DNA from: Minisyncoccota bacterium
GTDB lineage: Bacteria > Patescibacteriota > Minisyncoccia > Phycocordibacterales > UBA6065
Length of the DNA stretch: 64,000 nucleotides
Direction: 5' to 3'
Assembly (NCBI GenBank): GCA_041661645.1
Contig: JBAZUA010000002.1
Coordinates: forward strand, 19,670-83,669
Position 1 is the first letter of the stretch; every line of letters begins with the position of its first letter. The position numbers and the translations under genes are program-made. A model generated the notes under the pieces. That model was not told the DNA's origin, made no database searches, and worked only from the letters and a program-made list of their open reading frames with translations. Shown here in pieces: positions 14,463-38,390 of this stretch.

Positions 14463-14499
14463 GTTCCAATTGTATCACTTTCGACAACTCTGCTAAGGG

Positions 14500-14539
14500 G
14501 ACAGGTCCCGAGCGATATAAACTAAACTCAACTTGGTTG
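14500..14539 (+). repeat. 40-bp direct repeat matching the flank of tRNA-Gln. This is the distal boundary of the island.
   Basis: gacaggtcccgagcgatataaactaaactcaacttggttg differs at 2 of 40 positions from 36397-36436. The 36397-36436 copy includes the last 6 nt of the tRNA-Gln gene. The sequences diverge completely outside the 40 bp. Confidence 0.7.
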
Positions 14540-14543
14540 ACCC

Positions 14544-14563
14544 TCTGGGACGATGTTGGAACC
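14544..14563 (+). repeat. Direct repeat C, copy 1 (tctgggacgatgttggaacc).
   Basis: Identical 20-mer at 15666-15685. The pair brackets a 1.1-kb segment holding one gene and two hairpins. Confidence 0.5.
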
Positions 14564-19643: not shown

Positions 19644-19649
19644 TGATTT

Positions 19650-20006
19650 TTAGTATTCTCGCTTCTCAAAATTTATTTTTAGAGATACTAGAAAGTTTGT
19701 GAACCAAGAGCTGTAAAAGCAAAGATATGTAATCGCTATTAGATCGAATAGGTAGAAAAAGACCTTATGCTTAGCAGGAAAGGAAGTAATCTGAAACACC
19801 GCTGAAATTAAAAGTGTGATTATTGCTCCGGCCCATACCGCGAAAGAATCTCTGCTCTCCTTGCCTCTGGTCACGATGGCCGATTTCCCTCGGGTTAGGT
19901 CTATCCAGCCAGTGAATATCAAAGTTATCAAGATGACTGCCTGTAGGATTGTAAACCAGAGCTGATCACTGGTTAAAAGTCTTGCAATATAATATACGTT
20001 TTCCAT
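19650..20006 (-). CDS. Hypothetical membrane protein.
   Basis: The track ORF starts at a TTG (20057). An internal ATG gives a protein with about 4 transmembrane segments. The gene is AT-rich. Confidence 0.35.
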   Translation of the reverse strand: MENVYYIARLLTSDQLWFTILQAVILITLIFTGWIDLTRGKSAIVTRGKESRDSFAVWAGAIITLLISAVFQITSFPAKHKVFFYLFDLIAITYLCFYSSWFTNFLVSLKINFEKREY

Positions 20007-20075
20007 TTCTTCGGTTGGTTTATAAAAGTGACAATAGTGACACGCAAGCTTCTTCAATATTACACTCGACTGTCA

Positions 20076-20642: not shown

Positions 20643-20646
20643 GGGT

Positions 20647-21957
20647 TTATCTTTTCTTTAGGCTCTTGCGACTGATCTTCTCCTCGGTTTCTTTCTTCTT
20701 CGCCTCCTCGCGGGCTTTAACCTCCTCTGGAGGCACGACGCGCAGGTGCTCCATTATTCCATATCCCTTAAGGTGCTCGCGCGGATCGACTAGCCTGTAC
20801 CACTTCTCGACGGTCGTCCAGTCCTTGCCGTCCTTCCTCTGCCTCACGGACTTCGATTCGACGAGATCCTTCGGCGGGAGGAAGCCTTTGTTGTCCTCCA
20901 GCAGGAAAAGCTCGACGTGGACGCCCTCGCCGTACTTGCTGACCGTTCTCGCCCTGATGATGCCGTCTCGGAGCCATTTCCTCAGCGTCTGGCCCTTGAC
21001 GTTGAAATAGTATTCCAGATCGAACTTGCTGTACCAGCTGCCCTTGTCGCTCGCGAGGGAGGCGGGTATCTCCCCGCCGTCGACGGCCTTCTGGCAGACG
21101 AGGCACTTGATGCCGTGTTCGTCGTACCAGTTGTCGCCCTCGGGGGTATGGTCGCCGCAGACGAAGCAGGTGTATCCCGCTCCCTCTAGATGGAAACCCT
21201 TCGGGTTCTGCCTGAGCCTCTCCGCGCGGGCATCCTCCTTCTTCTTGAATTCCTCTATGAACGCCGATGCCCGCTCCATGTTCCACTTCTCCTCCTGGAA
21301 CTTCCTGCCCTCCTCGTCGTTCATGCAGAAGCGGTCGCGGTCCCTGGAGAAGTTCTCGTCGATCTCTTCCTCCTTCCTTTGCGACCATTCGATCTCGTCT
21401 TTCTCCGCGTACCCGCACTTCGGGCAGGTGCGCGTCGTGAGAAGCCTCTTACCGTCGTCGTCAGTTTCGCTCTTGAGAGGGGCGTTGCAGTGCAGGCAGA
21501 GGCTCGGCTTTACCCTCCATTCTTCTCCGTCCGAAAAGAACGCTCGGCGTGGCACGCACTCGTTAGCGCAGTCGTACATGAACAGCACTCGGTCTGGCTT
21601 TCCCGACTCGGGCCACAGCTCCTTGAACGTGGGCTTCAGGCGGTTCCTGCACGCGAGGCATCGGATGTCCTCTGGCGCTCGGGCCGATTCGTACAGTTCG
21701 TCTCTCTCCTTGTCGGCGTCCATCCAGTCGCGGATTGTCTTCTCCTTGTTCAGGTACCTTTCTCCCATCTGGATGTGCAGGTACCAATCCAGAGCGACCC
21801 TCCTTATCCGAGCCGCCTCTTTCTTGTCGATTTTATCGTCTACAGGTAAGTCCGTGTCGTCTCTATCGAAAGACTGTTCTGTCTCACGGCACCGCTTGAC
21901 GGTGTGGCGGTCGTAGAGATCTATGTAGTGCTGCTTGGACTTTAAGTGCTTCTCCAT
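20647..21957 (-). CDS. Multi-zinc-ribbon protein, hypothetical (436 aa).
   Basis: At least three CxxC...CxxC pairs: CLACRN...CANEC, CLHCNA...CPKCGY and CFVCGD...CLVCQK. The N- and C-termini are charged. It is 4 nt from the next gene, so it is in an operon. Confidence 0.5.
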   Translation of the reverse strand: MEKHLKSKQHYIDLYDRHTVKRCRETEQSFDRDDTDLPVDDKIDKKEAARIRRVALDWYLHIQMGERYLNKEKTIRDWMDADKERDELYESARAPEDIRCLACRNRLKPTFKELWPESGKPDRVLFMYDCANECVPRRAFFSDGEEWRVKPSLCLHCNAPLKSETDDDGKRLLTTRTCPKCGYAEKDEIEWSQRKEEEIDENFSRDRDRFCMNDEEGRKFQEEKWNMERASAFIEEFKKKEDARAERLRQNPKGFHLEGAGYTCFVCGDHTPEGDNWYDEHGIKCLVCQKAVDGGEIPASLASDKGSWYSKFDLEYYFNVKGQTLRKWLRDGIIRARTVSKYGEGVHVELFLLEDNKGFLPPKDLVESKSVRQRKDGKDWTTVEKWYRLVDPREHLKGYGIMEHLRVVPPEEVKAREEAKKKETEEKISRKSLKKR

Positions 21958-21972
21958 GGTCTCTGAATTAAC

Positions 21973-22848
21973 CTAATCTTCCCATAGTTTGTCGCCATAA
22001 GGATCTACTATTTTACCATCGGGATTTCTGACCTCGAAATGCACGTGAGCAGCCGTTCCTCCCGTCTTCCACATTTCAAAGTTTCCGCTTTGTGCGATAA
22101 GTTGACCTTTTTCTACGCGGCAAGATTTATCCTGACTGTTTACAATCAAAGTTTCCAATTCATCGGTTAGTTTTGTGGAGTGCCTGAACCATGTAACAAA
22201 ACCGTTGTCATGTTTAATGTAAATCGAATGATCCTTTTCCCAGCAGGCGCCATATATCAAATCACTTCCTTGGATCGCTCGGTGCAGCTCTCCATCTGCG
22301 GGTGCAATAATAGGTGTCCCTGGAGAATAAGGAAAATCATATCCCGCGTGACCGTCATACTGCAAAGTGCATTTGCCCCCATCGGATCCCACCCCTACAT
22401 AGTTGATCTCCTTATTTGCAAAGAACTCACTCTGGTTTTCTTTTTGGTAACCACAGGGTTCTACAGGGCACTGTTTACCGAATCCGACCTCTCCATTGAA
22501 AGCTTTTACTCGCTGGTCTTTTGCAGGTTTACCCCAAAACTTCGTACTCTCTGGATCGATCGCCGTTCCTGAATGGTCAACAACAGCACTTATTCTTACT
22601 GTTCGCGAAGTAAGGGGCTTACCGTCAGTATGATTTCCTCTAATTGGGCAAATAAGGAAGCTGGTCTTTATCGGTTGAAGGACGGTTTCCTGTCTAATTT
22701 CTATGGGTACATCGACAATCATTTGCGTCTCCTTTGCTTCAGGATTTTTTGATAGAACAGGTTTGTTGATTACAAACGGCTTCGCACGCAATCCTTGCAG
22801 GAAAGCCATCAGGGAGTTGAGGATTTTTTGTAGATTGTTTGGTTGCAT
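21973..22848 (-). CDS. M23 (LytM-type) metallopeptidase domain protein with no signal peptide.
   Basis: HAGYDF (HxxxD) and GGTAAHVHFEV (HxH) motifs lie in the C-terminal half. An N-terminal domain of about 150 aa is of unknown function. Confidence 0.65.
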   Translation of the reverse strand: MQPNNLQKILNSLMAFLQGLRAKPFVINKPVLSKNPEAKETQMIVDVPIEIRQETVLQPIKTSFLICPIRGNHTDGKPLTSRTVRISAVVDHSGTAIDPESTKFWGKPAKDQRVKAFNGEVGFGKQCPVEPCGYQKENQSEFFANKEINYVGVGSDGGKCTLQYDGHAGYDFPYSPGTPIIAPADGELHRAIQGSDLIYGACWEKDHSIYIKHDNGFVTWFRHSTKLTDELETLIVNSQDKSCRVEKGQLIAQSGNFEMWKTGGTAAHVHFEVRNPDGKIVDPYGDKLWED

Positions 22849-22867
22849 GTGAAGCGGTGAGTTTATT

Positions 22868-24361
22868 TTATAGTGTTATGTCGTAAAGATGTTTCCAGAT
22901 GGCATACATGGCATAGGTATCCAGACCACAATAAGTTTTGAGATCCTTAATGATAGTCTGTTTCGACTCAGGAGAAATTAGGGACGACACCATGGTCCAC
23001 CAAGCATCCGCGGCCTGTCCACCCTCACGGATGTTAATATCACCATAACGCAAATCAGGCACAATCGCAGGAAGTACTTTTTTAATGGATGTCTTTCCAC
23101 GGAAATCCGGATGAATATAGTGCTGAGCGGTAAAAATCTCCTTCAGATCGTAGAGGGAATCATTAATCTTTCCGAACAGTTCTTTGTATTGAGGCAGTCG
23201 TAAGGCGATTTCGTCATTTACGCCCGCTTCGTATGACTTATGCCAGGCGATAAATGTACCGCCGGGAACAAAGTTCTCTTTAAGAATTCGTCCCACATGC
23301 TCCGAAGGGTCACTTAGGTCTTCGTGTAGAAATTCCACGTGCTCTGGTTTGCTCGTTGGACTCTTCAGAATATGCAGGGAAAATTGGAAAGGGATTCTCT
23401 TATAGGGGCTGAATCCATTAAATGCCGGAATCGCTGGACCATATGCTTCATAGTCAAAAAAATAAAGTGGGAAGCTCAACTTGCCTAAAATATCTTTTAT
23501 CGACCCTTTGTCAATTATTGGTTCCTGCCGCTCGTGAGCTAAAATCTGATTTCTCTGATTTTCTGAAAGTGCGAACTCCTCAGGAATATCCTTAAGATCA
23601 AAGATACCGCCTTCAATAAGAAGGTTGAGCTTTTTCTGACTTATATACGATATGTCGTGGACTGAATATTCAGGCACATGCGAATTGGAATACTGAAATG
23701 TCGCACAGTGCTTTTTCCTGCCGCGGTAGACACACTCGCAGCTACCCAAAGGTTCCTCTGCGCGGTTCAAATATTCACGGGCAGCCGCCATCTGCTTTTC
23801 AACACCATCAAGGACGGCTTTTACCTCTTCCGTCTTATCTTCAACAATAAAAAGCTTTGGGATGTCGAGGTCTCCCGAGCGGACGTACTCTTTGTTTAGG
23901 TGGACTATGTAATAGCTTCCGAGCGGAACTCCAACTCGCTTCAATACAGAGACTTGAAAAGCAACATCGTCGATATGGCTATGATCAGCGTCATGCTCCT
24001 TCACGGAGTTTCCTCCCTTAACTTCATACAGATCCCATACGCCAGTCACTTTGTTGAATGAAAGCATGTCGTTTCTCGCAATGAAGCCATCAACAATGAA
24101 GGTCGCCTGGAAAATCGTGGGCATCTTAGAATCCATTAGACGTACGGTTTCATGGCATGCGCCTTCACCGTTTGAAGACACTGCTATGCCACCGGGAAAT
24201 AAGTTGCGGGCACAGGATTCAACCTCGTTACCTTGCTGCATCAGATGTTTTTCAAAATCAGAGAGCTGAAATTTCTCAAGCAGAACGGGCTTGTGGAGCT
24301 TGAGCCACATATTCTTAGGGCAATAGAGATAATCGAGAAATATTGTTTTTGATATGCTCAT
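22868..24361 (-). CDS. DUF2779-like fusion of a RecB/Cas4-like PD-(D/E)xK nuclease and a DEDD 3'-5' exonuclease.
   Basis: The N-terminus FLDYLYCPKNMWLK and a Cys cluster (CECVYRGRKKHC) resemble Cas4/RecB-type nucleases. The C-terminal FFDYEAYG...GLDTYAMYAIWKHL fits DnaQ-like Exo motifs I and III. It lies 10 nt downstream of the SNF2 gene. Confidence 0.5.
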   Translation of the reverse strand: MSISKTIFLDYLYCPKNMWLKLHKPVLLEKFQLSDFEKHLMQQGNEVESCARNLFPGGIAVSSNGEGACHETVRLMDSKMPTIFQATFIVDGFIARNDMLSFNKVTGVWDLYEVKGGNSVKEHDADHSHIDDVAFQVSVLKRVGVPLGSYYIVHLNKEYVRSGDLDIPKLFIVEDKTEEVKAVLDGVEKQMAAAREYLNRAEEPLGSCECVYRGRKKHCATFQYSNSHVPEYSVHDISYISQKKLNLLIEGGIFDLKDIPEEFALSENQRNQILAHERQEPIIDKGSIKDILGKLSFPLYFFDYEAYGPAIPAFNGFSPYKRIPFQFSLHILKSPTSKPEHVEFLHEDLSDPSEHVGRILKENFVPGGTFIAWHKSYEAGVNDEIALRLPQYKELFGKINDSLYDLKEIFTAQHYIHPDFRGKTSIKKVLPAIVPDLRYGDINIREGGQAADAWWTMVSSLISPESKQTIIKDLKTYCGLDTYAMYAIWKHLYDITL

Positions 24362-24370
24362 AGGAGCGGG

Positions 24371-27300
24371 TTAATTTTCAAGCCACCCATTGTTTAGTCG
24401 CTGGCCTTTGGCGATTCGTCCGATAACTACTCCGTCCTTGATTGAATAAATAAATCCTGCGTGTCGAACTACTAGCCTTAGCATGGTCCTGATTTCCATG
24501 CAGATTGCCAAGTTGCTCCCATCGGGAGACATCTCTGCCGCTTCGATCTGACACTTTCCCTTACCCAAGATCTTTGACGCTGCTGTAATTGCAGAAGGCC
24601 ATATTTCGGATTTATCCGCTTTTCGGTTAGTTCCCTCAAGAAGCTTCACGAGTACTTCCAGGCGATTTTGTTCACCAGAGATGACGTATTCAAAATATAC
24701 AGAGACGCCTGTTAGGTGACAGGCCCTAAGATCATTCGGATGACACTTGCGCCCACTCCATGCACACGCCTTCGCTTCGGCAGGGGCGCAGAAATCACCA
24801 GTAACGGACCTCACCCCTTCTTCTTCGAGCATTCTAGCATCGGAAATACTGCTTGAGATAAAGAATTTCTTCAGTGCTTTCTTTCCAGATACGGCACTTT
24901 TCTCAAGGAGGTCAGGGAGCACCATCTTTCCCGATACCGTACAGCTTTCAAGCATTCCAGGCATTACAATCTTGCCAGTCACCTCACACTTTTCCGCCTC
25001 ACCTGGCAATAATGGCTTATTGGTCTCGGAGCAGAATGTAAACTCTTGCTTATGGCCTGATTTGCCCGATACGGCAGAGCGTAACTCCTCGTCAGTACGA
25101 TATTTCTTTCCTGAAACTTGGCTAACCGCCAATTCTGTCTTTAGAACATCCGTCAATGTAAACTGGCAACGTCCGAAGAATTCGGGTTCTGCCTGTTTGC
25201 CGCTCATGTCCGATTCTTTAAGAAGGGTGCTTACGATCATGTGTCCTGTGATGGCGGATTTTTTGACCTCATCTTCAAGCACTCGCTTACCACTTAAGTC
25301 GCAAGTAACCATATGATTAGAGAGAGCCAGTCTTCCACTGGTGTCTGACTTCGCAAGCAGGTGGTGTAATGCCTTGAGGCCGCTTATTTCGCACTTAGCC
25401 AGACAATCTTCAGGGACTGTTCTGCCGGTCTGGGAGCACTTTCCCATGATAGGCCCATCGACGATCTCATTTGCAGAAGGGATAATCGTAAGATTGCTTG
25501 TCTGGTTAGTATCAGAATCGATGCTGTATGAGACAGATACCTTCAACTTTCTTCGAGCCGCCCCTTCTAAGCCAACAAGGGAAAACTCAAGAGTGGGGGT
25601 AAAATCGCTCTCTATCTTTTTAATCTTTCGCTGATCATAGCCGGCGGAATTAATCTCGTCAGCCAATCTCTCCCTGTAGAATCTACAAAATTCCATTACT
25701 CCAGAATCAGAATTTGCCCTTTCAAGCAGATTCTTCACATTCACGCCGATCGACGAGGGTTCTTTTAACGGATTATTTATTGAATCAAAACCAAATCTCG
25801 TCTCGTCGCTAAAATGCTCGTTTGGAGAGCAGATCACCTCGATCAATCTTTCGTAGCTATCATGCGCAACAGTCACGCGCGCCCTCACGAGTGCGGAACC
25901 GCTAAAACAGCACGACGTGCTCTTCGTATCAAAACCTTTAAGCTGACCGCCAAATTTTTCAACCCAACTTTTAATCAATATGTCGGCCTGTTTGGACGAA
26001 TTCGTATCCGCATCCTTAACAAGGTGCAGTCCTTTGCCTGTTATTTTTCGTACCAGCCTTTCAAAAGAGGGCGTGCCAGGACCGTACAGTGTGCTAGTAA
26101 ATAGAGTTCCCGCACCTCCTGCATCCGTTTTATTTTCAAAACGGATCAACTCTCGCTTTCCGTCTAATTCCGATATATGAAGGTCAGAGGCTTTTTCGTG
26201 AGACAGCTTAGCACCTATGCTTTCGAGAGCCTTCAACGTGAAATCACGGGCCTCCATGGATTTAACGGAAGGTGGCAATTGCGGAACCTCGGGTCCCACA
26301 TCTCCTCTCATATCTCCGAGCAGTGAGTTTATATTTTTCTCTTCTTTCTCAAGCTGTACCTTGGCGTCTGATATGCTTTTAGCTGCCTTTCGAGTAGCTT
26401 CTTCGATGTCTTTACCGGCAAGAGAAGCCACCACAAGCTTTCTGATTTTTTCTTCGAAGCCATTCGTTCCGTCTTCCTCTTCATCGATTCCCGATGCTTC
26501 GAGCAACGCTTCAACATCACCAATAGCATGAGAGGCCATTTGTAGCTTCTCCATAAGGCGTCCAACGATATATTCCTCGAATGTCCCCTTGAGAACAATA
26601 TTAAAGATACAAACCTTTTCATGTTCTGAGGCAAGGCGTTGTATACGACCGATTCGCTGCTCTACGATCATTGGATTCCAAGGGAGATCGTAGTTTACAA
26701 GCACGTTCGCAGCCTGAAGGTTAACACCTTCGGAACCAGCTTCGGTAGAGATGATCGCGTGAATCTTTGGCGGTTTCGTTTTGAACTTGCTGATCGTATC
26801 CTGATTGCGGCCCGCTGAATCGCCGTTAATGACATCGCAGGTAACGCCTCGCTCTTCAAGAAAGGCTTGAATTGTCGTCTGGGTTTCTCGTCGGCAGGTA
26901 AAGATCACCATTCGCCAATCTTTTGGCTGTTCTGATTTGAGTTTGTCGACCAGTGCGCCCAAACCCTCTAGCTTTGACGTCACGAAACCGCGATCAACTA
27001 TCGCTTTAACCTGCTCGGCGAGTTCCTTAGGAACCGTTTCTTTTTTTGCCATAGCCTTTAGCTGTGCGGAAACGGCATGAGGGCTGCTTATGAGAGCCTG
27101 AAGTATAGAAATCTGGGCGAGACGGTTCAGTTTTTGAATTGACGCGCCAATGATCTTAATAAGCTCCTTTTCATGTTTGGTAGGTTCGACGGTATGGAGT
27201 TGAACCACTCGCTCTGGAAAGTGCAGATTGGCATCTGCACGTCTAACTCGAGACATATATCCGTAGACAATGGATCGGAACTCATCCTTCATCTCTGGGT

Positions 27301-28081
27301 TCAATTTGCGAGCCTGAGTGCGATCGTCATCGATAAACTTTCGACTGAATGCGCCTGCGTTTCCGAACGGATTTTCATGACCACGCGCCACGGTCAAAAG
27401 ATCTACCAATGAATAAAGATCCCACAGTCGATTTTGAATAGGGGTGGCCGTGAGCATGAGAACGTATTTGAAAACACGATCAGATAGAACTTTACGGAAT
27501 TTCTGGGCGACCTGGGGTGGTGGATCAACCCCGTAGAGGTTTCTGAGTTTATGAGCTTCGTCCAATATGAGCATGTCGAATCCGGCTTTCGAAAGATGGT
27601 CGAGATAGAGGCGTGCAGACTGGTATGTGGTGATCACGGCCCCGACTTCACCGGGCGGTTTTGCGTCCGCAAGGTCTTTTCCTGTCAGGATTACCGATGG
27701 AATCCCGAATTTAGTCTCTAGTTCCTCTTGCCACTGCTTGCCGAGGATCTTGGGACAAACTATCAGAATCTTTTCTAGGCGGCCGCGTGCGATCAATTCG
27801 CTTGCCACCAGACCTGCACTAATCGTCTTTCCAAGACCAACGTCGTCAGCCAAAAGGGTTACGGGAAGACGACGACAGAACGTGATGAGATTAGACACCT
27901 GATGGTTGTAGGGTTCAATTTTGTCCTTCCACCTGCTTGTTGATTTTAGATCCTCTCGTTTCTCAATAACAATAGGATCGATAAGATCCCATTCTAATGC
28001 GGCTCGATATAAATTGTATTGCTCTGGACTAGTAGAGTTCTCTAAGGGCTTGATTTGAATTGATGAAGTTGTTTTGTCCAT
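24371..28081 (-). CDS. SNF2-family (DEAH-box) helicase/translocase with a C-terminal array of short SGK-type repeats of about 650 aa (1236 aa in total).
   Basis: Walker A LADDVGLGKT, DEAHKLRN, TATPIQN, and helicase-C QRIGRIQR. The C-terminal half carries at least 12 tandem repeats of about 15 aa, of the type C/S-x-V/I-S/T-G-K-x-V/A-L/M-x3-L-x-K/E-S. Confidence 0.8.
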   Translation of the reverse strand: MDKTTSSIQIKPLENSTSPEQYNLYRAALEWDLIDPIVIEKREDLKSTSRWKDKIEPYNHQVSNLITFCRRLPVTLLADDVGLGKTISAGLVASELIARGRLEKILIVCPKILGKQWQEELETKFGIPSVILTGKDLADAKPPGEVGAVITTYQSARLYLDHLSKAGFDMLILDEAHKLRNLYGVDPPPQVAQKFRKVLSDRVFKYVLMLTATPIQNRLWDLYSLVDLLTVARGHENPFGNAGAFSRKFIDDDRTQARKLNPEMKDEFRSIVYGYMSRVRRADANLHFPERVVQLHTVEPTKHEKELIKIIGASIQKLNRLAQISILQALISSPHAVSAQLKAMAKKETVPKELAEQVKAIVDRGFVTSKLEGLGALVDKLKSEQPKDWRMVIFTCRRETQTTIQAFLEERGVTCDVINGDSAGRNQDTISKFKTKPPKIHAIISTEAGSEGVNLQAANVLVNYDLPWNPMIVEQRIGRIQRLASEHEKVCIFNIVLKGTFEEYIVGRLMEKLQMASHAIGDVEALLEASGIDEEEDGTNGFEEKIRKLVVASLAGKDIEEATRKAAKSISDAKVQLEKEEKNINSLLGDMRGDVGPEVPQLPPSVKSMEARDFTLKALESIGAKLSHEKASDLHISELDGKRELIRFENKTDAGGAGTLFTSTLYGPGTPSFERLVRKITGKGLHLVKDADTNSSKQADILIKSWVEKFGGQLKGFDTKSTSCCFSGSALVRARVTVAHDSYERLIEVICSPNEHFSDETRFGFDSINNPLKEPSSIGVNVKNLLERANSDSGVMEFCRFYRERLADEINSAGYDQRKIKKIESDFTPTLEFSLVGLEGAARRKLKVSVSYSIDSDTNQTSNLTIIPSANEIVDGPIMGKCSQTGRTVPEDCLAKCEISGLKALHHLLAKSDTSGRLALSNHMVTCDLSGKRVLEDEVKKSAITGHMIVSTLLKESDMSGKQAEPEFFGRCQFTLTDVLKTELAVSQVSGKKYRTDEELRSAVSGKSGHKQEFTFCSETNKPLLPGEAEKCEVTGKIVMPGMLESCTVSGKMVLPDLLEKSAVSGKKALKKFFISSSISDARMLEEEGVRSVTGDFCAPAEAKACAWSGRKCHPNDLRACHLTGVSVYFEYVISGEQNRLEVLVKLLEGTNRKADKSEIWPSAITAASKILGKGKCQIEAAEMSPDGSNLAICMEIRTMLRLVVRHAGFIYSIKDGVVIGRIAKGQRLNNGWLEN

Positions 28082-28397
28082 TTTCCGAGCAAGAATTCGT
28101 CAGAGGGGCTATTGGGGTACTTAAAATATAGCACTATATTCATTCTTTTTCTTCTGACGAAATTGCTGTATAATATTGTTAACACTAATTCCCTCGGCAG
28201 TACCAGGGGACCGAAAACCAGACAGGGCCGAGCACCCGACTTGGAGAAGCTGTTCAGAGACAGAAACATGCCGAGCGACAACCTCGCTAGGCGAAAGCTG
28301 ATCAGCGGAAAGCAGTACTTGAGCTGATGCGTCAAAATCTAGAAACCATTTCTGGATTTTTTGCCTGCCAGTTTATACAAGGTAACCACCTAAAAAT

Positions 28398-29711
28398 ATG
28401 AAGAAAAAAACAATGCTACATGCGGGTCTTTTCGAGCGCGACATAAAAATCGAGCTGGTGCCCGCGCGCCTCTTGAAGCCCGCCGCATACAACCCGCGAA
28501 AGTGGGATGATGCGGCCGCTACCCAGCTGACCAGGAGCATCAGGGAGTTCGGTCTCGTGGACCCCATCCTCGCGAACGGCTCTCCCGAAAGGAGGAACGT
28601 CGTCATCGGAGGGCATTTCCGCCTGAAGATCGCCAAGGATCTCGGGTACACGGAAGTTCCCGTGGTCTATCTGAATATTCCAGACGAGCGAAAGGAGAAA
28701 GAGCTGAACATCAGGCTAAACAAGAACACTGGCGATTGGGATTTCGACAAGCTCAAATCCTTCGACTTTGATTTTCTGGCAGATATCGGGTTCGATAAAA
28801 TTGAGCTATCGGATCTCTGGGACAAGGATTTGGAAACAGCGGATGACGAGTTCGATGTCGAAGGCGAGCTCAAGAAGATAAAAAAGCCCAAGACAAAGCT
28901 CGGCGACCTGATCATTCTCGGCAATCATAAGCTTGCGTGTGGCGATGCGACAGACCCCTCGGTTCTTATAAGGCTTTTCGGCAAGGAAAGGGCCTCGATG
29001 ATCTATTCCGACCCCGTATATAACATCAAGATCAATTACGGTGGCGGCATCAGTGGCAGGCAGAATTACGGCGGAAACGTAAACGATGACCGTTCGGAAT
29101 CAGAGTATAAGGAGTTTTTGAAGAAGAGCATGGTGAACGCCTTGTCGGTTACGAAGGAAAACGCCCATGTCTTTTACTGGTCGGACCAGAAGTATATCGG
29201 CCTCATTCAGGAACTCTACCGAGAGTTGAAGATCGAGAACAAGCGCGTCTGCCTGTGGATCAAGAACGCGCAAAACCCGACTCCGGGCGTCGCGTTCAAC
29301 AAGTGCTACGAACCGTGCACTTATGGCGTGAGGGGCAAACCGTACATATCGAAGAGCGTTCAAAATTTGAACGAGGTGATGAACAAGGAAATCACCACGG
29401 GAAACAATCTGCTCGCCGAGGCCTTGGATCATCTGGATCTGTGGATGGTGAAGCGACTGTCTGGAAAGGAATACGAGCACGCCACGTCGAAGCCTCCCGT
29501 GCTTCACCAGAAGGCCATTCGGCGTTGCACGAAATCGGGCGACATCATACTCGACAGCTTCTCCGGCTCGGCGAGCACGATGATCGCGGCAGAGCAGTTG
29601 AAAAGGAGGGTGTACGCGGTCGAGCTCGAACCAGCCTTCTGCGACCTCGCCATAAGGCGATACGAAAAGCTTACTGGCGTTAAGGCGAAGATCATCCATG
29701 AAGAAGCATAA
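28398..29711 (+). CDS. ParB-like nuclease domain fused to a beta-class N6A/N4C DNA methyltransferase.
   Basis: N-terminal ParB/Srx motif (VIGGHFRLKIAKDLG). Motif IV DPVYNI precedes motif I ILDSFSGSAST, which is the beta-class order. It lies immediately upstream of terminase genes, which is the usual phage arrangement. Confidence 0.75.
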   Translation: MKKKTMLHAGLFERDIKIELVPARLLKPAAYNPRKWDDAAATQLTRSIREFGLVDPILANGSPERRNVVIGGHFRLKIAKDLGYTEVPVVYLNIPDERKEKELNIRLNKNTGDWDFDKLKSFDFDFLADIGFDKIELSDLWDKDLETADDEFDVEGELKKIKKPKTKLGDLIILGNHKLACGDATDPSVLIRLFGKERASMIYSDPVYNIKINYGGGISGRQNYGGNVNDDRSESEYKEFLKKSMVNALSVTKENAHVFYWSDQKYIGLIQELYRELKIENKRVCLWIKNAQNPTPGVAFNKCYEPCTYGVRGKPYISKSVQNLNEVMNKEITTGNNLLAEALDHLDLWMVKRLSGKEYEHATSKPPVLHQKAIRRCTKSGDIILDSFSGSASTMIAAEQLKRRVYAVELEPAFCDLAIRRYEKLTGVKAKIIHEEA

Positions 29712-30090
29712 AATCAAAAACGGGTTCTTGGCGGAACTGAGGAGAATTCCCATTGTTCAGGTCGCCTGTGAAAGATCTGGAATATCGAGGAATAGCGTAT
29801 ATCGATGGAGGAACGAAGATGCCGTGTTCCAAAAGGAAATGGACAAGGCCTTGGAGGAGGGCGAGGCTCTGGTGAACGACATGAGCGAAAGCCAGTTGCT
29901 GACGATGATAAGAGAAAAGAACTGGTCTGCTGTCAGCTTTTGGTTGCGTCATCGAAACCCGAAGTTCCGTGAGCGCATAGAGATAGCGGGATCCGTAAAG
30001 ACGATTCAGGAGCTACCGCCCGATCAGAAAGAGATGGTCACCAATGCCCTTAAATTAGCAGATTTAGCCTTGAGAAAAAATGAACAATAA
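29698..30090 (+). CDS. Terminase small subunit-like HTH protein.
   Basis: N-terminal HTH (GISRNSVYRWRNEDAVFQKEM). It overlaps the start of the large terminase gene by 11 nt. Confidence 0.5.
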   Translation: MKKHKIKNGFLAELRRIPIVQVACERSGISRNSVYRWRNEDAVFQKEMDKALEEGEALVNDMSESQLLTMIREKNWSAVSFWLRHRNPKFRERIEIAGSVKTIQELPPDQKEMVTNALKLADLALRKNEQ

Positions 30091-31582
30091 CCTACTCGAC
30101 AAAGAAGCACTGAATTTAATCCTGACCAACCGAGGCGTCCGCCAGCAGGTGACATATCAGAGCCACCTGCTGTTCTTCCACGTTTTCTTTTCGCACTACG
30201 TGAAATACCCCATAGCGGAGTTCCAGAAGGAGATCTTCCGCATCACAGAGGACGCATCGAACACTTTGGCCTGTATTGTCTCGTTCAGGGGATCGAGCAA
30301 GTCCACCCTCGTCACCTTCTCCTACTCGCTCTGGGCGGTCCTCGGCGTGCAGCAGAAGAAGTTCGTGCTCATCGTATGCCAGACGCAGTCCCAGGCCCGT
30401 CAGCACATGGCAAACCTGAAACACGAGCTTGAGCAGAATGAGACGCTGAAGAGCGACCTCGGGCCGTTTCGAGAAGATATCGGTGTCGGCGAGTGGGCGA
30501 TGTCATCCTTGGTATTCAAGAACACGGGCGCGCGTATCATGGTGGCGTCGATGGACCAGAGCATCCGAGGGGCGAGGCACCGACAGTACCGCCCGGACCT
30601 CATAATCCTCGACGACATCGAGGACGTGAACTCGGTGAAGACGCACGAGGGGCGCTCCAGGGTGTCGGACTGGTTCTCGCGCGAGATCGTCCCGCTGGGA
30701 GACATCGGGACCAGGATCGTAATCGTCGGAAACCTCCTGCACGAGGACTCATTCGTGATGCAGTTGAAGCGCAAGATAGAGCGCAAGGAATTGTCAGGCG
30801 TCTACCGTTCGTTTCCCCTCATCGACAGCGACGGCGGATGCCTGTGGCCCGGGAAGTTCGATTGCGAGGAGAAGATCGAGCAGTTGCGCCAGAGCGTAGC
30901 GAACGAGAGCGCATGGCTCATGGAGTATCTGCTCCTGCCCGTGTCCGACGCATCGCGTGTCATACACCCCGAGTGGATCGCGTTCTACGATGAGATGCCC
31001 GAGAGGTGCGAGGAAAACGAGTATCGAGGGGCCTCCGTCGGGATAGACCTCGCGATATCGGAAAGGGATCGGGCGGACTGCACCGCCATGGTGACGGCCC
31101 ACGTCTTCGGCTACGGCAAGGACATGAGGATCTACATAGAGCCGAATCCCGTGAACGACCGCATGGACTTCTCTATATCCATCGACACGGCGAAGATGCT
31201 TTCCAAGGGGCACGCGCATAACAATCGCAACGCCCAGATATACGTCGAGAACAATGGGTACCTGGAGGTGTTCCCCGAGACGCTCCGTAGGGAGCCTGGA
31301 ATCCCCGTGGAGGGAATCCCGTCCCGTGGCGACAAGCGGACGAGGCTCGTCGTGACTGGCGTGCCCGTTAAGGCGGGACACGTGCTGTTCCCAAGAAGTG
31401 GGGCCGAGGAGCTTCTCATGCAACTGACGGGGTTCGGCTCCGAGAGGCACGATGACCTCGTGGACGCGTTCTCCATCGTCGTGGGAGAGGTCGTCAAACG
31501 GAATCGCCCTAGGCCCAATTTCGACATCACCTTCAGCGGCGTGATGCCGATTACCGCTGGTCTGAGGAATAAGATCTTCTAG
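30080..31582 (+). CDS. Phage terminase large subunit.
   Basis: ATPase motifs (FRGSSKST Walker A-like and DLIILDDIED Walker B). The C-terminal RNase-H-like nuclease carries acidic residues (GIDLAIS...DCTAMV...DDLVDAF). Confidence 0.75.
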   Translation: MNNNLLDKEALNLILTNRGVRQQVTYQSHLLFFHVFFSHYVKYPIAEFQKEIFRITEDASNTLACIVSFRGSSKSTLVTFSYSLWAVLGVQQKKFVLIVCQTQSQARQHMANLKHELEQNETLKSDLGPFREDIGVGEWAMSSLVFKNTGARIMVASMDQSIRGARHRQYRPDLIILDDIEDVNSVKTHEGRSRVSDWFSREIVPLGDIGTRIVIVGNLLHEDSFVMQLKRKIERKELSGVYRSFPLIDSDGGCLWPGKFDCEEKIEQLRQSVANESAWLMEYLLLPVSDASRVIHPEWIAFYDEMPERCEENEYRGASVGIDLAISERDRADCTAMVTAHVFGYGKDMRIYIEPNPVNDRMDFSISIDTAKMLSKGHAHNNRNAQIYVENNGYLEVFPETLRREPGIPVEGIPSRGDKRTRLVVTGVPVKAGHVLFPRSGAEELLMQLTGFGSERHDDLVDAFSIVVGEVVKRNRPRPNFDITFSGVMPITAGLRNKIF

Positions 31583-31584
31583 GC

Positions 31585-32289
31585 CTAGCTTAGTTGTATG
31601 TTTAGTTTAGCGTCTCCCAAATCCAACGGATTGGGAACTGACTTTACTATGTTCATGACAATGCCCCATATGTAAGGGTTGGATACGGGAAACTGCACGG
31701 CCTTGCTTCTGCCGTCCACGGTAATTTCGATGGCATCGGATAGAGTCTCAATGCCAAGGACCTTCTTGAGGGGGATGGTCCTGTTCTCCTTACTACCCAT
31801 GAAGACAATTTTCTTGTTGGTGACAAATACCTCGCCTCTATCAAGCGACGCCCATTCGAGAGAGCTCTTCGATGATCCGGCGTATCGCCCGACGCTCACG
31901 CCCTTCATAATTCTGACGCTTCCAAAGCCACCAGATGATTTTCTCACCGATCTGGTTTCCCTTAGCTCAACATTTTCCCTTAAAAACAGATGCTCGTCCT
32001 GATCAAGAAATATCGCGCCCTTTGTCTCGATGACGGGTAGTGAATTCGAGCTTCTGACCAGTTCCACGTATTTGTCGGCCTCTGCAACGAGAGATGACTT
32101 TCTCTCGGAGGCTTTTTTCTGCGAGCGTATGAGTGCGGCGAGAAGGAGCAGTGCGAAAGAAATGAAGAGGCTGTACTTGCCGATAATTATAAAAAGGACG
32201 ATGCTCACTCCGATCCACCACAGGAAGGGGTGTTTCTCCAGGCTTTTGCTTGCCCCATCTAATTTCTTCGAGTTTGTATTTGTGCTCAC
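31585..32289 (-). CDS. Membrane protein with a bacterial PH (bPH_2/YdbT-like) domain.
   Basis: N-terminal transmembrane hairpin. The C-terminal EVFVTNKKIVFMGSKENRTIPLKKVLGIE matches the bPH_2 pattern. Confidence 0.45.
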   Translation of the reverse strand: MSTNTNSKKLDGASKSLEKHPFLWWIGVSIVLFIIIGKYSLFISFALLLLAALIRSQKKASERKSSLVAEADKYVELVRSSNSLPVIETKGAIFLDQDEHLFLRENVELRETRSVRKSSGGFGSVRIMKGVSVGRYAGSSKSSLEWASLDRGEVFVTNKKIVFMGSKENRTIPLKKVLGIETLSDAIEITVDGRSKAVQFPVSNPYIWGIVMNIVKSVPNPLDLGDAKLNIQLS

Positions 32290-32386
32290 GTTATATATCT
32301 AAAGCTATTAATATCGTGGCGGGTAAATACAAAAAGCCCACCACTAGGTAGAGCCGAGGCTCATATCTCAAGTTTCCCTGAAATAG

Positions 32387-32429
32387 CACAAGACGTGACC
32401 CCTAATGATGGGTTCTTTATCGTCTTGTG
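32387..32429. repeat. Imperfect palindrome upstream of the intact serine recombinase, a candidate recombination site.
   Basis: cacaagacg...cgtcttgtg are 9-bp arms. They enclose gacccc...gggttc within a 260-bp AT-rich non-coding stretch. Confidence 0.25.
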
Positions 32430-32652
32430 ACTAACTGTATTCGTACCGTGCCGACACGTTGCCGTGTGGGGTTAGGTAACTATGTTGTATTTACTGAATA
32501 TTGATTCAGTGTGTTCATACTATCGCTAAAATAAGGCTTTGTTAAGGTAGTTGCCAACAAGCGGAGGCTTAGCAAAGCTATCTGTCTCTGGCATTAATGG
32601 ATGTATGGAAATACAAGCCACCGCCCTCATGGGCAAATCGACCTTGGCCCCG

Positions 32653-33924
32653 ATGGCGAAAGTAAGGTATTGCCTCTACGCCCGCAAGTCCACCGAGCAG
32701 GAGGAGAAGCAGATCCTGTCGATTGACTCGCAGATCAAGGAGATGCTCTCGCTCGCGCAACGTGAGGGTCTCGAAATTGTCGATACTCGAAAGGAGTCAC
32801 ATTCCGCCAAGGCCTCGGGACAACGGCCTGTATTCAAGCAGTTGTTGGAGGACGTTAGATCAGGGAAGTTCGACGGCATACTCGTCTGGCACCCAGACAG
32901 GCTCTCCAGAAACGCGGGAGACCTCGGCTCGGTCGTCGATCTCATGGACGAGAAGCTCCTCGTCGAGATCCGTACCTACGGGCAGAAGTTCTCGAACAAC
33001 CCGAACGACAAGTTCCTCCTGATGATCCTCTGTTCGCAGGCGAAGCTCGAGAACGACAACAAGAGCGTCAACGTGAAGCGGGGCCTCAGGGCGAGGTGCG
33101 AGATGGGTCTGTGGCCCGCGCAGGCACCAACGGGATACGTCAACAGCTCGAACGTCAGCGAAATCTGCGTGGTCCACGTCGACCCCGTAAAGGCACCGAT
33201 CATCAAGCAGGTGTTCGAGAGGGTCGCCTACGAGGGCTGGGGAGGCAAGAGGGCCTATCTCTGGCTCAGGGACGAGCTGAGGTTCACCGCGAAGAGCGGA
33301 AAGCCCCTGACGCTGAGCAACGTGTTCATGATCCTCCACAACCACTTCTACTACGGCATATTCGAGTACCCTAAGAACAGCGGGAAATGGTATCAGGGAA
33401 AGCACACGCCCATCATCTCGAAAGACCTCTTCGATCAGGTACAGAAGCAACTCCACTGCCAGAGGAAGGTGAGGGACACGAACAAGGAGTTCGCGTTCAC
33501 AAAACTGATGTCATGCGGGCTGTGCGGATCAGGCATAACCGCACAGGATAAGTACAAAAACCTCGCGGACGGCACGGTGAAGAAGTACATCTACTACGGG
33601 TGCACGAAGATTCGGGACAAGGACTGCGGGAACGGATATCTGGAGGAGGCCGAGCTTATAAGGCAATTACTCGAACTGATGGACGACGTAGACTTAGATC
33701 AGTCTGGTCTGAGGAAAAAGCTTCAATCTGAAATCGAGAGGCACAAGAAGTTCAGCGTCGGGATTCTCGGTGGGAAGAAGGAGGATTATTCAGCAAAGGA
33801 TATGGATATCAGAAATTATGCAAAGTATCTTTTGAGGGAGGGCAATCTTTTTGAGAAAAGAGATCTGTTGGTTTGCTTGAAAAGCAAGATAGTTCTTAAA
33901 GAAAAGAAAGTTGCCTTGGGATGA
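32653..33924 (+). CDS. Large serine recombinase (integrase/resolvase family), intact.
   Basis: Catalytic region VRYCLYARKSTEQEEKQ, the recombinase domain, a Cys4 zinc ribbon (CGLCGSG...YYGCTKIRDKDCG) and a coiled-coil. The track ORF begins at a TTG at 32551. The first ATG directly preceding the catalytic domain is about 32653. Confidence 0.8.
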   Translation: MAKVRYCLYARKSTEQEEKQILSIDSQIKEMLSLAQREGLEIVDTRKESHSAKASGQRPVFKQLLEDVRSGKFDGILVWHPDRLSRNAGDLGSVVDLMDEKLLVEIRTYGQKFSNNPNDKFLLMILCSQAKLENDNKSVNVKRGLRARCEMGLWPAQAPTGYVNSSNVSEICVVHVDPVKAPIIKQVFERVAYEGWGGKRAYLWLRDELRFTAKSGKPLTLSNVFMILHNHFYYGIFEYPKNSGKWYQGKHTPIISKDLFDQVQKQLHCQRKVRDTNKEFAFTKLMSCGLCGSGITAQDKYKNLADGTVKKYIYYGCTKIRDKDCGNGYLEEAELIRQLLELMDDVDLDQSGLRKKLQSEIERHKKFSVGILGGKKEDYSAKDMDIRNYAKYLLREGNLFEKRDLLVCLKSKIVLKEKKVALG

Positions 33925-33947
33925 TATAAGTTTATGGCCATTGCCGA

Positions 33948-34988
33948 TTATTTACGGCCAGATGATTCATAAAATGGATTATATAGAACCATGGTCATAG
34001 TACGCATCATTGCCCGTTGTGTAGCCTGTATGTAGGCAACAGCTTTACTAAATTCACCGTCTTTTATCATCGTCCGGATCTCTTTTCTAATATTCGCAAA
34101 CTCTTCAGACTCGAGAGTTCTCTCTAAACTCTGCAGTACTTCTCGTTCGGTTAAATCAGGCATACTCATTATGCCCTCTGTTAATGAATTGGCGTGGCTG
34201 TTCGCTAAACATATGGTTGAAAGTACTTCATAAGTATTGTTTGTAAAAATATCTTTAATTCTGTCAACCTGATCCTTCTCGAGAAACCCTCCGGCAGGAA
34301 AGCCGAATGCAAATTTATCAAATAAAGGGAGGGGGTGAAACGACATTGGGAAATTAACTACAAAGCCCATTGCTGTTAATCGCAGGGCTTTAAGTAGAAA
34401 ATCTAGCCCTACTTTTAAGCCAACCTCACTGAATTCGGTCACGTTGCTATTTCTTAATGCCGTATGAGTGTGCGTTGCTCCCTGGGTATGCATGAATCCC
34501 GATAACTCCTTGTATAGAGATTGAATTTCGATGTTCCATTGCAATTTATCATTGAGAGTTTTGAATTCAATATTTTTTGCAGGCAGTGCTTTTAACATTT
34601 CGCTAATTGTGGGCGTGTTGGCCTTTCCATCTAGCCAGTTTTTAAAATTATCCCTGTCCTCATTTACAAAATGATACAAAGCAAAAACCTGTAATTCTAT
34701 AAAACTCCTTATTGATCGGAAACTGTCCTTATAGAATCCTGTTAGAAGCAACAATATGCCTGAATTTATATCTTGCTCGGCCTCAAAGAATACATGGTGC
34801 CATGGATGGATTGTGGTAAATTCTTCACCTGTACCGCCAAATATTGGAATGGCGAATAGAAGTTCGTGAGACCCGTTTAGAGCTCTGCGTATGTCATCCG
34901 ATATTTCTTTATGTGCTTCGAGCCACGCAGCACTTCGATCAGCTGTTTTGCCGAGTGAGGCTGCCTGTTTGAAATAATTATCTAGCAT
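33948..34988 (-). CDS. Hypothetical protein (about 346 aa), AT-rich.
   Basis: The track start at 35057 is a TTG. The internal ATG (MLDNYFKQ) leaves a 28-nt gap to the upstream gene. I recognise no motif. Confidence 0.45.
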   Translation of the reverse strand: MLDNYFKQAASLGKTADRSAAWLEAHKEISDDIRRALNGSHELLFAIPIFGGTGEEFTTIHPWHHVFFEAEQDINSGILLLLTGFYKDSFRSIRSFIELQVFALYHFVNEDRDNFKNWLDGKANTPTISEMLKALPAKNIEFKTLNDKLQWNIEIQSLYKELSGFMHTQGATHTHTALRNSNVTEFSEVGLKVGLDFLLKALRLTAMGFVVNFPMSFHPLPLFDKFAFGFPAGGFLEKDQVDRIKDIFTNNTYEVLSTICLANSHANSLTEGIMSMPDLTEREVLQSLERTLESEEFANIRKEIRTMIKDGEFSKAVAYIQATQRAMMRTMTMVLYNPFYESSGRK

Positions 34989-35016
34989 TTCATTTATTGT
35001 CTTATTTGAAATAACC

Positions 35017-36207
35017 CTAAACTTTGATGTTGGGAAGGATTGATTCCGTAATATCAAAGGTCATGTCAATTTTTGATGAACCTGCGAGCGAAATTGATTC
35101 AGAGGCTAGTCTTAATAAGAACTTCAATGAAGCAATATCTGCCAAGACCTTAGCTTTGCTTGCTTCCCATATTGGATTTTGTGAGTTTGCGCCGCCGCTA
35201 TGCCGACCTGCTAAGGATAATGAATATTGAACCGTACGGGAAATAAAATCTTCTCTCGCTATATCTTCTTGAGATTTAATACTATTGCCAAACTGTGAAG
35301 CGGTATAGCCATCTGGAACTTGTAGTGACGAATAAGTGTTCTTCAGGGTTATTTTTTTACTAGAGTGATTTTTTATCAAAAAATGGACCGTGATTGTGAA
35401 GTTATCCATTACGCCATCATTAGTTCTTGAGCCGGGATTTAGTTCGAGTTTTTCAAATTCAATCGCAAGGCCCACAGAATCATCATTCTTGGTCGGTGTC
35501 TCTTTTAAAATTCCTCTCGTTGAGAGCACCTTTCTTCCATCTGCAAAAGTAATAGTAGTTTCAATTAGAGGAACTATTTCTGTAGGTTCCTGCCGACCAT
35601 CTTCTAATCTTATTGACCCGTTCTCTCTATCGACAATCACATGCGCTTTCTGGGTGTCGCCGTTTCTTCTACCCAAAATAAAGTGATGGTCATCGCCTTG
35701 TGTTCTTGATTCCAAAAACACATCATCTGTTTTAAATCTATTTTTAATTGTTTTACCGCGCTCGGTAGTATTCTGGTCACTTTTAAGTAACAGCCTCAGG
35801 CTCCTTTTTTCACGTAGTTCTAATTCTAACAGAGCTCGATTGTGGAGACTGGTTTTTATATCAGGATTGTCATTCCTGCGTACGATTTCCTCCAACTCTT
35901 CAAAAGTTCTTTTTGTTAAGTCAGTAAAGTCTTGTTGTTTATCTTTGGATAAAAATTTATCTATTCTATCTGGTGTTGATGAAAAGCCTTCGTGGTAAAT
36001 ATCACCACCTTCATTTTCAATTAAAAGAAATCCCTCGGATTTTAATTGATGTAAAAAACCTTTAATATGCTGAATTTCTTCTGGCTGAATATTGTTATGA
36101 TCGTGTGCGATCATAAGTTCGCAGACTCGGATTGTTTTTATGTACCCACCACTATGCGTCTTAAAGAAAGACATTATTTCGTTTTTTGATGGATATATGA
36201 GATTCAT
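35017..36207 (-). CDS. Hypothetical protein (396 aa), AT-rich, co-operonic with 33948-34988.
   Basis: ATG start. I recognise no motif. It is the first gene inside the island next to the tRNA-proximal att repeat. Confidence 0.5.
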   Translation of the reverse strand: MNLIYPSKNEIMSFFKTHSGGYIKTIRVCELMIAHDHNNIQPEEIQHIKGFLHQLKSEGFLLIENEGGDIYHEGFSSTPDRIDKFLSKDKQQDFTDLTKRTFEELEEIVRRNDNPDIKTSLHNRALLELELREKRSLRLLLKSDQNTTERGKTIKNRFKTDDVFLESRTQGDDHHFILGRRNGDTQKAHVIVDRENGSIRLEDGRQEPTEIVPLIETTITFADGRKVLSTRGILKETPTKNDDSVGLAIEFEKLELNPGSRTNDGVMDNFTITVHFLIKNHSSKKITLKNTYSSLQVPDGYTASQFGNSIKSQEDIAREDFISRTVQYSLSLAGRHSGGANSQNPIWEASKAKVLADIASLKFLLRLASESISLAGSSKIDMTFDITESILPNIKV

Positions 36208-36351
36208 AAATAGCGTCTAAAATTTGTTACCTACTTAAAATTCAAACGAATAAATGCTTGTCCTGAATCGCTGATTTTGAATGATGAGATGCAGGTATTG
36301 CGTACGGATAAACTAATCCTGAAAGGATTTAGTCAGCTTATCACTTTATAA

Positions 36352-36380
36352 GTAAAAGGCACCCTGATGGTGCCTTTTAC
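36352..36380. terminator. Hairpin between tRNA-Gln and the island, a terminator candidate.
   Basis: gtaaaaggcacc-ctga-tggtgccttttac. Confidence 0.4.
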
Positions 36381-36396
36381 TTATCTCTCAAAAGAC

Positions 36397-36436
36397 GACG
36401 GGTCCTGAGCGATATAAACTAAACTCAACTTGGTTG
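36397..36436 (+). repeat. 40-bp direct repeat, tRNA-proximal copy. It covers the tRNA-Gln 3' end (6 nt) plus 34 nt of downstream flank.
   Basis: gacgggtcctgagcgatataaactaaactcaacttggttg matches 14500-14539 at 38 of 40 positions. Confidence 0.7.
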
Positions 36437-36504
36437 CCAGACTTGGAATCGAACCAAAATTTTCGCTTTCAGAGAGCGACGTCCTACCGTTAGACGATCT
36501 GGCA
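36431..36504 (-). tRNA. tRNA-Gln (anticodon CUG), 74 nt with encoded CCA.
   Basis: Folded by hand from the reverse complement. The acceptor stem TGCCAGA/TCTGGCA gives U1:A72, as in bacterial tRNA-Gln. The D-arm is GTCT...GGAC. The anticodon stem is TCGCT/AGCGA with loop CTCTGAA, so the anticodon is CTG. The T-arm is TTTGG-TTCGATT-CCAAG. The discriminator is A and CCA follows. Confidence 0.8.
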
Positions 36505-37634: not shown

Positions 37635-37892
37635 CTATTCGTAGAGCTCGCTGTGCGTGCCTATCGCGACGAAAATGGTGATTCCACCATCGGTTCTGTA
37701 GATGGCTCGAATGTCTCCAGTCACGTTGATGCTCCTGTGATGTGACCACTCCGCGTGAAGTTCATGATTCTCGAGCGTCGGGTCAAAGGGATTCTTCGAG
37801 AACGCGTCGAATCTCTTTATGAAAGCCATCTGGACCTTTTTGTCCATCCTCGAATACCGCTTGATGAAGCTTTTGTGCAGTATGGACGGCAT
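37635..37892 (-). CDS. Type II toxin, RelE/ParE (YafQ-like) family.
   Basis: The 85-aa protein ends with GDIRAIYRTDGGITIFVAIGTHSELY, which is the RelE/ParE C-terminal signature. Confidence 0.6.
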   Translation of the reverse strand: MPSILHKSFIKRYSRMDKKVQMAFIKRFDAFSKNPFDPTLENHELHAEWSHHRSINVTGDIRAIYRTDGGITIFVAIGTHSELYE

Positions 37893-37901
37893 GTGCTGTT
37901 T

Positions 37902-38180
37902 CTAGGCTATTTTCCTCAAGTACGCGTCCATATCCTTCGCGTTCGCGAAGACGGGTGATAGGTTTTTGCCTGCCTTTATGTCCTTCTCTGCGCGGCGCAG
38001 GAGGGCGGCGGTCTTCTTGTTAGGGACGAGAGGCTCTCGGAAGGTTATCTGACGTTCGTCGATGAACTGACGCAGGTAGTTGTTCACCACGGTGCTCATG
38101 GAGAGTCCGAGATTCGTCGCCACGTCACGCGCGGTGTCCTTGAGCGTCTTCTCGATCTTTATGTTCAAAACGGTTTTCAT
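37902..38180 (-). CDS. Antitoxin, RelB/DinJ-like ribbon-helix-helix protein.
   Basis: It lies directly upstream of the RelE-like toxin on the same strand. LNIKIEKTLKDTARDVATNLGLSMSTVVNNYLRQ fits a DinJ N-terminus. The internal ATG is preferred over the track start. Confidence 0.5.
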   Translation of the reverse strand: MKTVLNIKIEKTLKDTARDVATNLGLSMSTVVNNYLRQFIDERQITFREPLVPNKKTAALLRRAEKDIKAGKNLSPVFANAKDMDAYLRKIA

Positions 38181-38390
38181 ATAACCAAAGTATATACAAC
38201 GGTTAATGTTTGTCAAACATATCCTTTCCTTGTTTTTTATCTATAAACATGGTGATATATGGAGCAGAAAAGTCCGCCTCAACTTTGCTCGTATTCATCC
38301 AGCATCGACCCCACGCCAGAACCGCGGGGCCTTGCGGGGCACAGACGCCCTATGAATACGCCATTGAGGCATTGAAAGGAAACCAGATAG

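Follow-up and report, generated by a model that had tools for sequence, protein, structure and literature searches.

Two independent accessory genes of a serine-recombinase element from Candidatus Paceibacterota: a HEPN-fold gene at the edge of a variable defence slot, and a mosaic protein with a winged-helix head

The stretch of DNA analysed here (the window) comprises 64,000 nt of contig JBAZUA010000002.1 (assembly GCA_041661645.1, positions 19,670 to 83,669 of the forward strand), part of a metagenome-assembled genome of Candidatus Paceibacterota, a lineage of the candidate phyla radiation (CPR). It carries an integrative element at a tRNA-Gln gene, and two adjacent, AT-rich genes near the tRNA-proximal end of this element, designated A and B, were found to be independent modules: A encodes a mosaic protein headed by a winged-helix domain, and B, a HEPN-fold gene, flanks a variable defence slot. 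The original prediction had put the pair forward as a good candidate for an undescribed two-component system in a defence-cargo position, an interpretation that is, overall, partly supported. The two genes were conserved together in none of 33 related loci, so that the two-component claim is not supported, and the apparent system consists of two independent modules that lie side by side by chance. We consider it probable that A and B are accessory genes, acquired horizontally and independent of each other, A as variable cargo and B as a semi-constant flank of the slot, with defence-like roles inferred for both.

Independence of the two genes

The two genes and the gap between them are placed as follows:

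36207..35017, reverse strand: gene A, ATG start, 396 aa
34989..35016, reverse strand: A-B spacer, 28 nt, AT-rich, without a terminator-like site
34988..33948, reverse strand: gene B, ATG start at 34988, 346 aa

The open reading frame (ORF) listing gave B as 35057..33948, with 369 aa and a TTG start. All B homologues begin at the equivalent of the ATG at 34988 with 'M(L/F/I)DNYxKQ', so that the protein has 346 aa and the gap to A is 28 nt. The 396-aa start of A is likewise right, because its N-terminus 'MNLIYPSKNEIM.FF' is kept in homologues, and the public NCBI annotation (WC763_01925, 365 aa, beginning at an internal Met) is probably too short; the 31 residues upstream of the annotated start are conserved among homologues. 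Matches to homologues extend down to E values of 8e-150 (B) and 1e-126 (A), which argues that both are real genes. The GC content is 0.373 for A, 0.399 for B and 0.383 for the pair, which places it within the lowest 0.5% of 2.26-kb windows; the two flanks are each at 0.57, and the remainder of the island is at about 0.49. The predicted ORF sizes (about 346 and 396 aa) and spacing, the markedly lower GC and the location between an intact serine recombinase and an att repeat (confirmed by the recombinase domains and a 63-nt repeat at tRNA-Gln, see later) were thus all borne out. A scan for consensus promoters and terminators found fewer promoter-like sites than in shuffled controls, and nothing useful between A and B.

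Conservation of the pair was assessed in 33 related loci, gathered by exact-protein look-ups and pattern scans, against all of which both proteins were compared by tblastn. Not one locus contained A and B together, an outcome that the original prediction had itself named as refuting it. A was upstream of B in none of the 12 B loci that have at least 2 kb of upstream sequence, and B was downstream of A in none of the seven other full-length A loci with downstream sequence. Two neighbouring genes were considered as disguised partners and rejected by profile comparison: a 338-aa gene downstream of the A homologue in L006 is neither a hidden B homologue nor an A paralogue, and a DUF8370/8371 gene upstream of B in L008 is unrelated to A.

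A lineage-specific two-component system, with A as sensor and B as effector, or a universal effector role of B for whichever sensor or defence protein lies upstream, would accord with the shared strand, the 28-nt spacing, the lack of a terminator-like site in the spacer and the similar AT-richness of the two genes, and the placement of B 3–50 nt behind its upstream gene in 10 of 12 loci is compatible with coupling to variable partners. We nevertheless hold both versions to be quite improbable, given that A and B occur together in 0 of the 19 informative loci, that B stands alone with its own upstream region beside the recombinase in L027 and L028, that A is found without B in elements of the same type (L033, L032 and L004), and that the upstream partners of B have no domain in common. 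The element inserted at tRNA-Gln has a large serine recombinase, terminase small- and large-subunit-like (TerS- and TerL-like) genes and a ParB-methylase gene, and under the independent-gene reading the adjacency and probable co-transcription of A and B arise here only because A fills the variable cargo slot directly upstream of B. The two genes are probably transcribed from a promoter lying between a hairpin at 36348-36384 and A.

Gene B and its variable upstream slot

The B protein is all-helical, with a HEPN-like four-helix core, arranged up-and-down as in that fold, and helical extensions at the N- and C-termini. Its fold matches include the HEPN toxin 5yep (8.4), AbiA (7.9) and LsoA (7.7). 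Scans of A and B with Pfam, PADLOC, PHROGs and NCBIfam returned nothing above curated thresholds, and to this extent the predicted lack of recognisable domains stands; B does have this HEPN-like fold and a sub-threshold similarity to DUF5677 (PF18928). The latter is the sole recurrent sequence family among B relatives, with 23 of 33 members matching at E < 0.01 (best E 1.7e-5). The B of the window scores 14.9 bits (E 0.028) and the best relatives 24.1–25.4 bits, all under the gathering cut-off of 27.1 bits, and the match spans only about 50–100 residues of the proteins. PDB sequences searched with a B-family profile gave nothing meaningful.

The Rx4-6H motif of HEPN RNases is absent as a conserved feature of B, its sole match (R34/R35..H41) not being kept in homologues, and a canonical HEPN RNase assignment was rejected on this ground. 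The extended B family comprises 115 clusters, including a subfamily of about 300 aa and one Methanobacterium protein, and twelve residues are invariant across it (P62, E69, Y86, R94, E98, W118, H167, G170, F186, P214, K225 and L236), the polar ones being E69, R94, E98, H167 and K225. A survey of HEPN domains (PMC3710099) described variants of the AF0298/AbiV type that do without the motif His and use a conserved His further upstream, and linked at least 16 HEPN clades to restriction-modification (R-M) operons. By analogy, H167, which lies upstream of R179-N180, could be part of an alternative site like that of AF0298 and AbiV.

The identity of B is about 60% among copies from Saccharibacteria, Falkowbacteria, Wolfebacteria and Paceibacterota, and its GC is low (0.31–0.39) in every genome sampled, so that its value of 0.40 in a genome of 0.57 points to recent import. 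It is the last gene of its operon wherever a co-directional upstream neighbour exists, with a gap of 3–50 nt, and it has seven different upstream partners or stands alone beside the recombinase:

L001: HsdM-HsdS-HsdR upstream of B
L021: HsdS-HsdR, then an AAA_13 ATPase gene matching PADLOC PDC-S06
L017, L020: HsdR, HsdM/S, then an AAA_13/PDC-S06 gene
L018, L025: HerA-like gene, then a DUF2779 gene
L008, L022: DUF8370/8371 gene matching PDC-M36A
L026: gene for a 241-aa protein whose function is not known
L027, L028: B alone, divergent from the recombinase

The B relatives of L001, L017, L020 and L021 lie within or directly behind an R-M operon; the window copy follows A instead. The operon of L025 begins with methylase genes and an AlwI-type endonuclease gene, a Type III-restriction-like gene lies upstream in L018, and the far side of the recombinase in L027 and L028 is occupied by Shedu, an OLD-family protein or Hachiman. 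In related elements, Type I R-M, Hachiman, Shedu, OLD/Gabija-like systems and the PADLOC candidates PDC-S06 and PDC-M36A are found near the slot, in keeping with the proposed position for defence cargo. Most B loci also have other backbone genes nearby (recombinase, ParB-methylase, TerS, TerL and the genes C5 and C10), and in L020 B and the recombinase are convergent, as in the window. For B, 'semi-constant gene of the element family' is a better description than 'cargo'.

Four of these loci share a leader of about 36 nt, AGATCGnCAAnTATATGAnnCTnGGACTATAAAAAT, directly before the ATG of B, despite their differing upstream genes, which argues that cargo has been exchanged upstream of a fixed B flank. 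It was found in the following regions:

L017: 5931-6000
L018: 5931-6000
L020: 5931-6000
L025: 7931-8000

The leader marks a recombination boundary for cargo exchange, and may contain a promoter only a short distance from the ATG. The upstream ORFs of L017 and L020 extend across the leader.

The close association with the recombinase invites another explanation, namely that B serves not defence but the life cycle or maintenance of the element, either controlling the serine recombinase as a recombination directionality or regulatory factor, or stabilising the island as an addiction toxin. B is adjacent to the recombinase in the window, L020, L027 and L028, and within 7 kb of it in L001, L008, L022, L024 and L026, and the identities of the two proteins to the window copies are similar (58–63% for B, with one outlier at 36%; 52–59% for the recombinase, with outliers at 30–35%). 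DUF5677 genes are, moreover, enriched next to serine recombinases in Bacillota according to a preprint (PMC12632615), in which five of nine candidates protected against six phages, yet the single DUF5677 gene tested was not among these, a result that also counts against a defence role for B. However, B is missing from related elements whose recombinase and backbone are intact (L033, L032 and L004), so that integration does not require it. The HEPN fold is characteristic of RNase toxins and Abi proteins rather than of known directionality factors, and no cognate antitoxin-like partner is conserved next to B. On balance, a life-cycle or maintenance role appears doubtful.

Gene A, a mosaic protein with a winged-helix head

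The A protein is built of four modules: an N-terminal winged-helix domain (residues ~1-90), which has the fold characteristic of that class, a helical linker (~94-145), a beta-rich middle region (~146-240) and an Ig-like C-terminal beta-sandwich (~240-390). It has no transmembrane segment. An exhaustive profile search of 1.84 billion representatives returned 217 protein hits, in which the modules (1-90, 94-145, 146-240 and 240-390) each occur separately with other partners, and only one representative cluster outside the query set (P0065) matched A from end to end. Among 33 scanned relatives of other architecture, 21 have one predicted transmembrane segment joined to the head module; in some relatives its partner is a PLD-like/MIT_C domain, and 2 of 22 proteins gave a weak match to a CAP12-type TIR domain. 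The winged-helix heads form an uncharacterised, heavily shuffled module family. In one set of head relatives (P0076-P0112) the head is 50–60% identical across many CPR proteins, most of them single-pass membrane proteins with unrelated ectodomains, two with TIR-like domains and a few with PLD-like domains.

The surroundings of A vary as much as its architecture. In L004 and L009/10 its neighbour is a serine recombinase, in L032 such a gene lies close by, and in L006 A is chromosomal and near KwaB. In L033 (5050-7777) it is inserted between homologues of C5 (20647-21957 in the window) and C10 (20076-20642), two genes that are adjacent in the window, indicating that A moves as a single-gene moron. 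From these varied contexts it follows that A behaves as mobile cargo, or a moron in phage terms.

The presence of TerS- and TerL-like genes in the island raises the alternative that A and B are housekeeping genes or structural genes of a prophage, and the C-terminal beta-sandwich of A does weakly resemble phage DUF4352/Ig-like proteins. The Foldseek comparison of A with BFVD from which these matches come gave E values of 5e-5 but TM-scores of only 0.2–0.27, and is not informative. Relatives of A or B were absent from IMG/VR contigs, the INPHARED phages (50,697 genomes), PLSDB plasmids and PHROGs; A has a cytoplasmic winged-helix head and B a HEPN-like fold, and both genes have a patchy, island-restricted distribution and foreign GC. 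The alternative is extremely unlikely, and housekeeping and phage-structural roles were rejected on these grounds; the original prediction would have been undermined by a structural assignment of that kind, and none was seen.

Returning to the interpretation of A and B as independent accessory genes, their function is probably abortive infection or defence, and defence-type cargo is a plausible idea for A and also, though in another sense, for B. By analogy with restriction-linked HEPN proteins, B might act as a second-line backup for the upstream defence operon, of an abortive-infection type that targets RNA or binds nucleic acid; it lacks the canonical Rx4-6H motif but keeps the invariant R94, E98, H167 and K225. 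The conserved winged-helix head of A probably binds nucleic acid, and the protein may have a stand-alone exclusion or defence-type function.

Several observations weigh against assigning such roles. CPR bacteria are hard to manipulate. Sampling was limited, with about 19 informative loci and many homologues on contigs too short to judge. RNase activity of B would not be assured given the sequence of a family that does not conserve Rx4-6H, and R179-N180 is conserved only in the subfamily of about 346 aa. Neither A nor B matched any family of PADLOC-DB 2.0 at E values up to 1, which for B in particular speaks against a role in defence, as does the DUF5677 result mentioned above. No recognisable enzymatic domain was found in A, and the relatives of its head mostly look like single-pass membrane proteins, which suits signalling or exclusion no less than defence.

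The integrative element and comparison with known systems

The element has the features of one that targets a tRNA gene, in that its recombinase is intact and its direct repeats take in the 3' end of the tRNA:

32551..33924, forward strand: large serine recombinase, intact, with Resolvase, Recombinase and Zn_ribbon_recom domains
36431..36504, reverse strand: tRNA-Gln(CTG), the integration target
36385..36447, no strand assigned: tRNA-proximal att repeat, exact 30-nt core at ~36407-36436
14488..14550, no strand assigned: distal copy of the att repeat
13764-13785, 18786-18807 and 19622-19643: further att-core-like copies
36348..36384, reverse strand: hairpin with a perfect 16-bp stem (-24.3 kcal/mol, z -5.5), just inside the island between att/tRNA and A
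28398-29711, forward strand: ParB-N6/N4 methylase (Pfam)
29698-30090, forward strand: TerS-like gene
30080-31582, forward strand: TerL-like gene

The recombinase is convergent with B, their stop codons being 23 nt apart. The two copies of the 63-nt direct repeat (36385-36447 and 14488-14550) are 81% identical and share the exact 30-nt core, and the repeat overlaps the 3' end of tRNA-Gln. The hairpin probably acts as a terminator that insulates A from tRNA read-through. An att-core motif (~GACC.GTCCTGAGCGA) occurs five times, at 13694-13785, 14488-14550, 18716-18807, 19622-19643 and 36385-36464, twice beside tRNA-3'-like fragments, and a second, N-terminally truncated serine recombinase ORF is found at 17406-18734. 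The five cores and the truncated recombinase suggest that several elements or remnants have accreted in tandem at tRNA-Gln, and the element bearing A and B may extend only from 19644 to 36390 (about 16.7 kb).

The element family, including L001, L021 and L033, shows conservation of the ParB-methylase, TerS-like and TerL-like genes, and the terminase-like genes gave a PHROGs match (phrog_38, E 2e-64). Portal, capsid and tail genes were not recognised within the island, which also carries an M23 peptidase; the element could be a CPR bacterium's prophage in a degraded state, or a phage satellite.

Three further groups of genes in the window were noted. Within the island, at 22868-28081 on the reverse strand, are genes for a 1236-aa SNF2 helicase (PADLOC BrxH/DrmD-like, E 1e-56) and then a 497-aa DUF2779/Cas4-like protein, homologues of which (41% identical) immediately precede B in L018 and L025 and are themselves preceded by a HerA-like ATPase; the helicase and DUF2779 genes may represent another candidate defence module. 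A second low-GC patch (0.39–0.42) at 56934-59033 contains an ORF of 148 aa that its sequence motif marks as Vsr-like, another of 318 aa and one that has an HNH motif at its C-terminus, and may be another small R-M or defence islet. Just outside the island, at 37635-38216 on the reverse strand, ORFs of 104 aa and then 85 aa form an overlapping operon with an antitoxin-toxin (RelE/ParE-type) look, judged by eye only.

CPR bacteria (Patescibacteria) mostly lack CRISPR, and their phage resistance is little understood. A bolder proposal, which we think rather unlikely, is that B marks an undescribed hotspot of defence cargo in widespread serine-recombinase/terminase elements (possibly phage satellites) that cross distant CPR lineages, with a non-canonical HEPN protein as the common second-line effector and A as new cargo with a shuffled winged-helix sensor head. 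The independent-gene reading itself, if it holds, points to a mobile-element family that carries interchangeable defence operons between distant CPR lineages, and B, as the constant HEPN-like gene beside the variable slot, could be used as a practical marker for new CPR defence cargo, of which A would be one candidate. No relevant description of a CPR serine-recombinase defence element turned up in the literature searched.

Four kinds of known system invite comparison. B resembles restriction-linked HEPN proteins (the PrrC/RloC-type logic and the AF0298/AbiV-type variants; PMC3710099), but differs from them in lacking a conserved Rx4-6H motif and in its 346-aa length, with additional helical regions at both termini; it carries no fused ATPase, is also found behind operons other than R-M or behind none, follows A rather than an R-M operon in the window, and has a putative RNase role. 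With DUF5677 (PF18928; PMC12632615) it shares weak sequence matches and the association with large serine recombinases, although the B-family scores are all below the cut-off and cover only part of the proteins, and DUF5677 is itself without a known function. The head of A, 50–60% identical over unrelated C-termini (transmembrane anchor, PLD-like, TIR-like or beta-sandwich), recalls the constant sensor and swapped effector of CBASS, Pycsar and Thoeris effectors, whereas the C-terminus of A has no recognisable effector chemistry, most of its relatives look like single-pass membrane proteins with ectodomains, and no signalling enzyme is linked. The hotspots of P2/P4 prophages and satellites (PMC9122126) likewise hold a variable anti-phage slot between conserved genes of terminase-bearing integrative elements, here the recombinase/att and B; they differ from the present case in that the hosts are here CPR bacteria, the backbone is a serine recombinase and ParB-methylase, and the hotspot is deduced from about a dozen loci rather than a census. 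The families of A and B are uncharacterised but of kinds already known, namely hotspot cargo and HEPN-like genes linked to R-M, and the element family with its B-flanked cargo slot in CPR bacteria is a more interesting lead than the pair itself.

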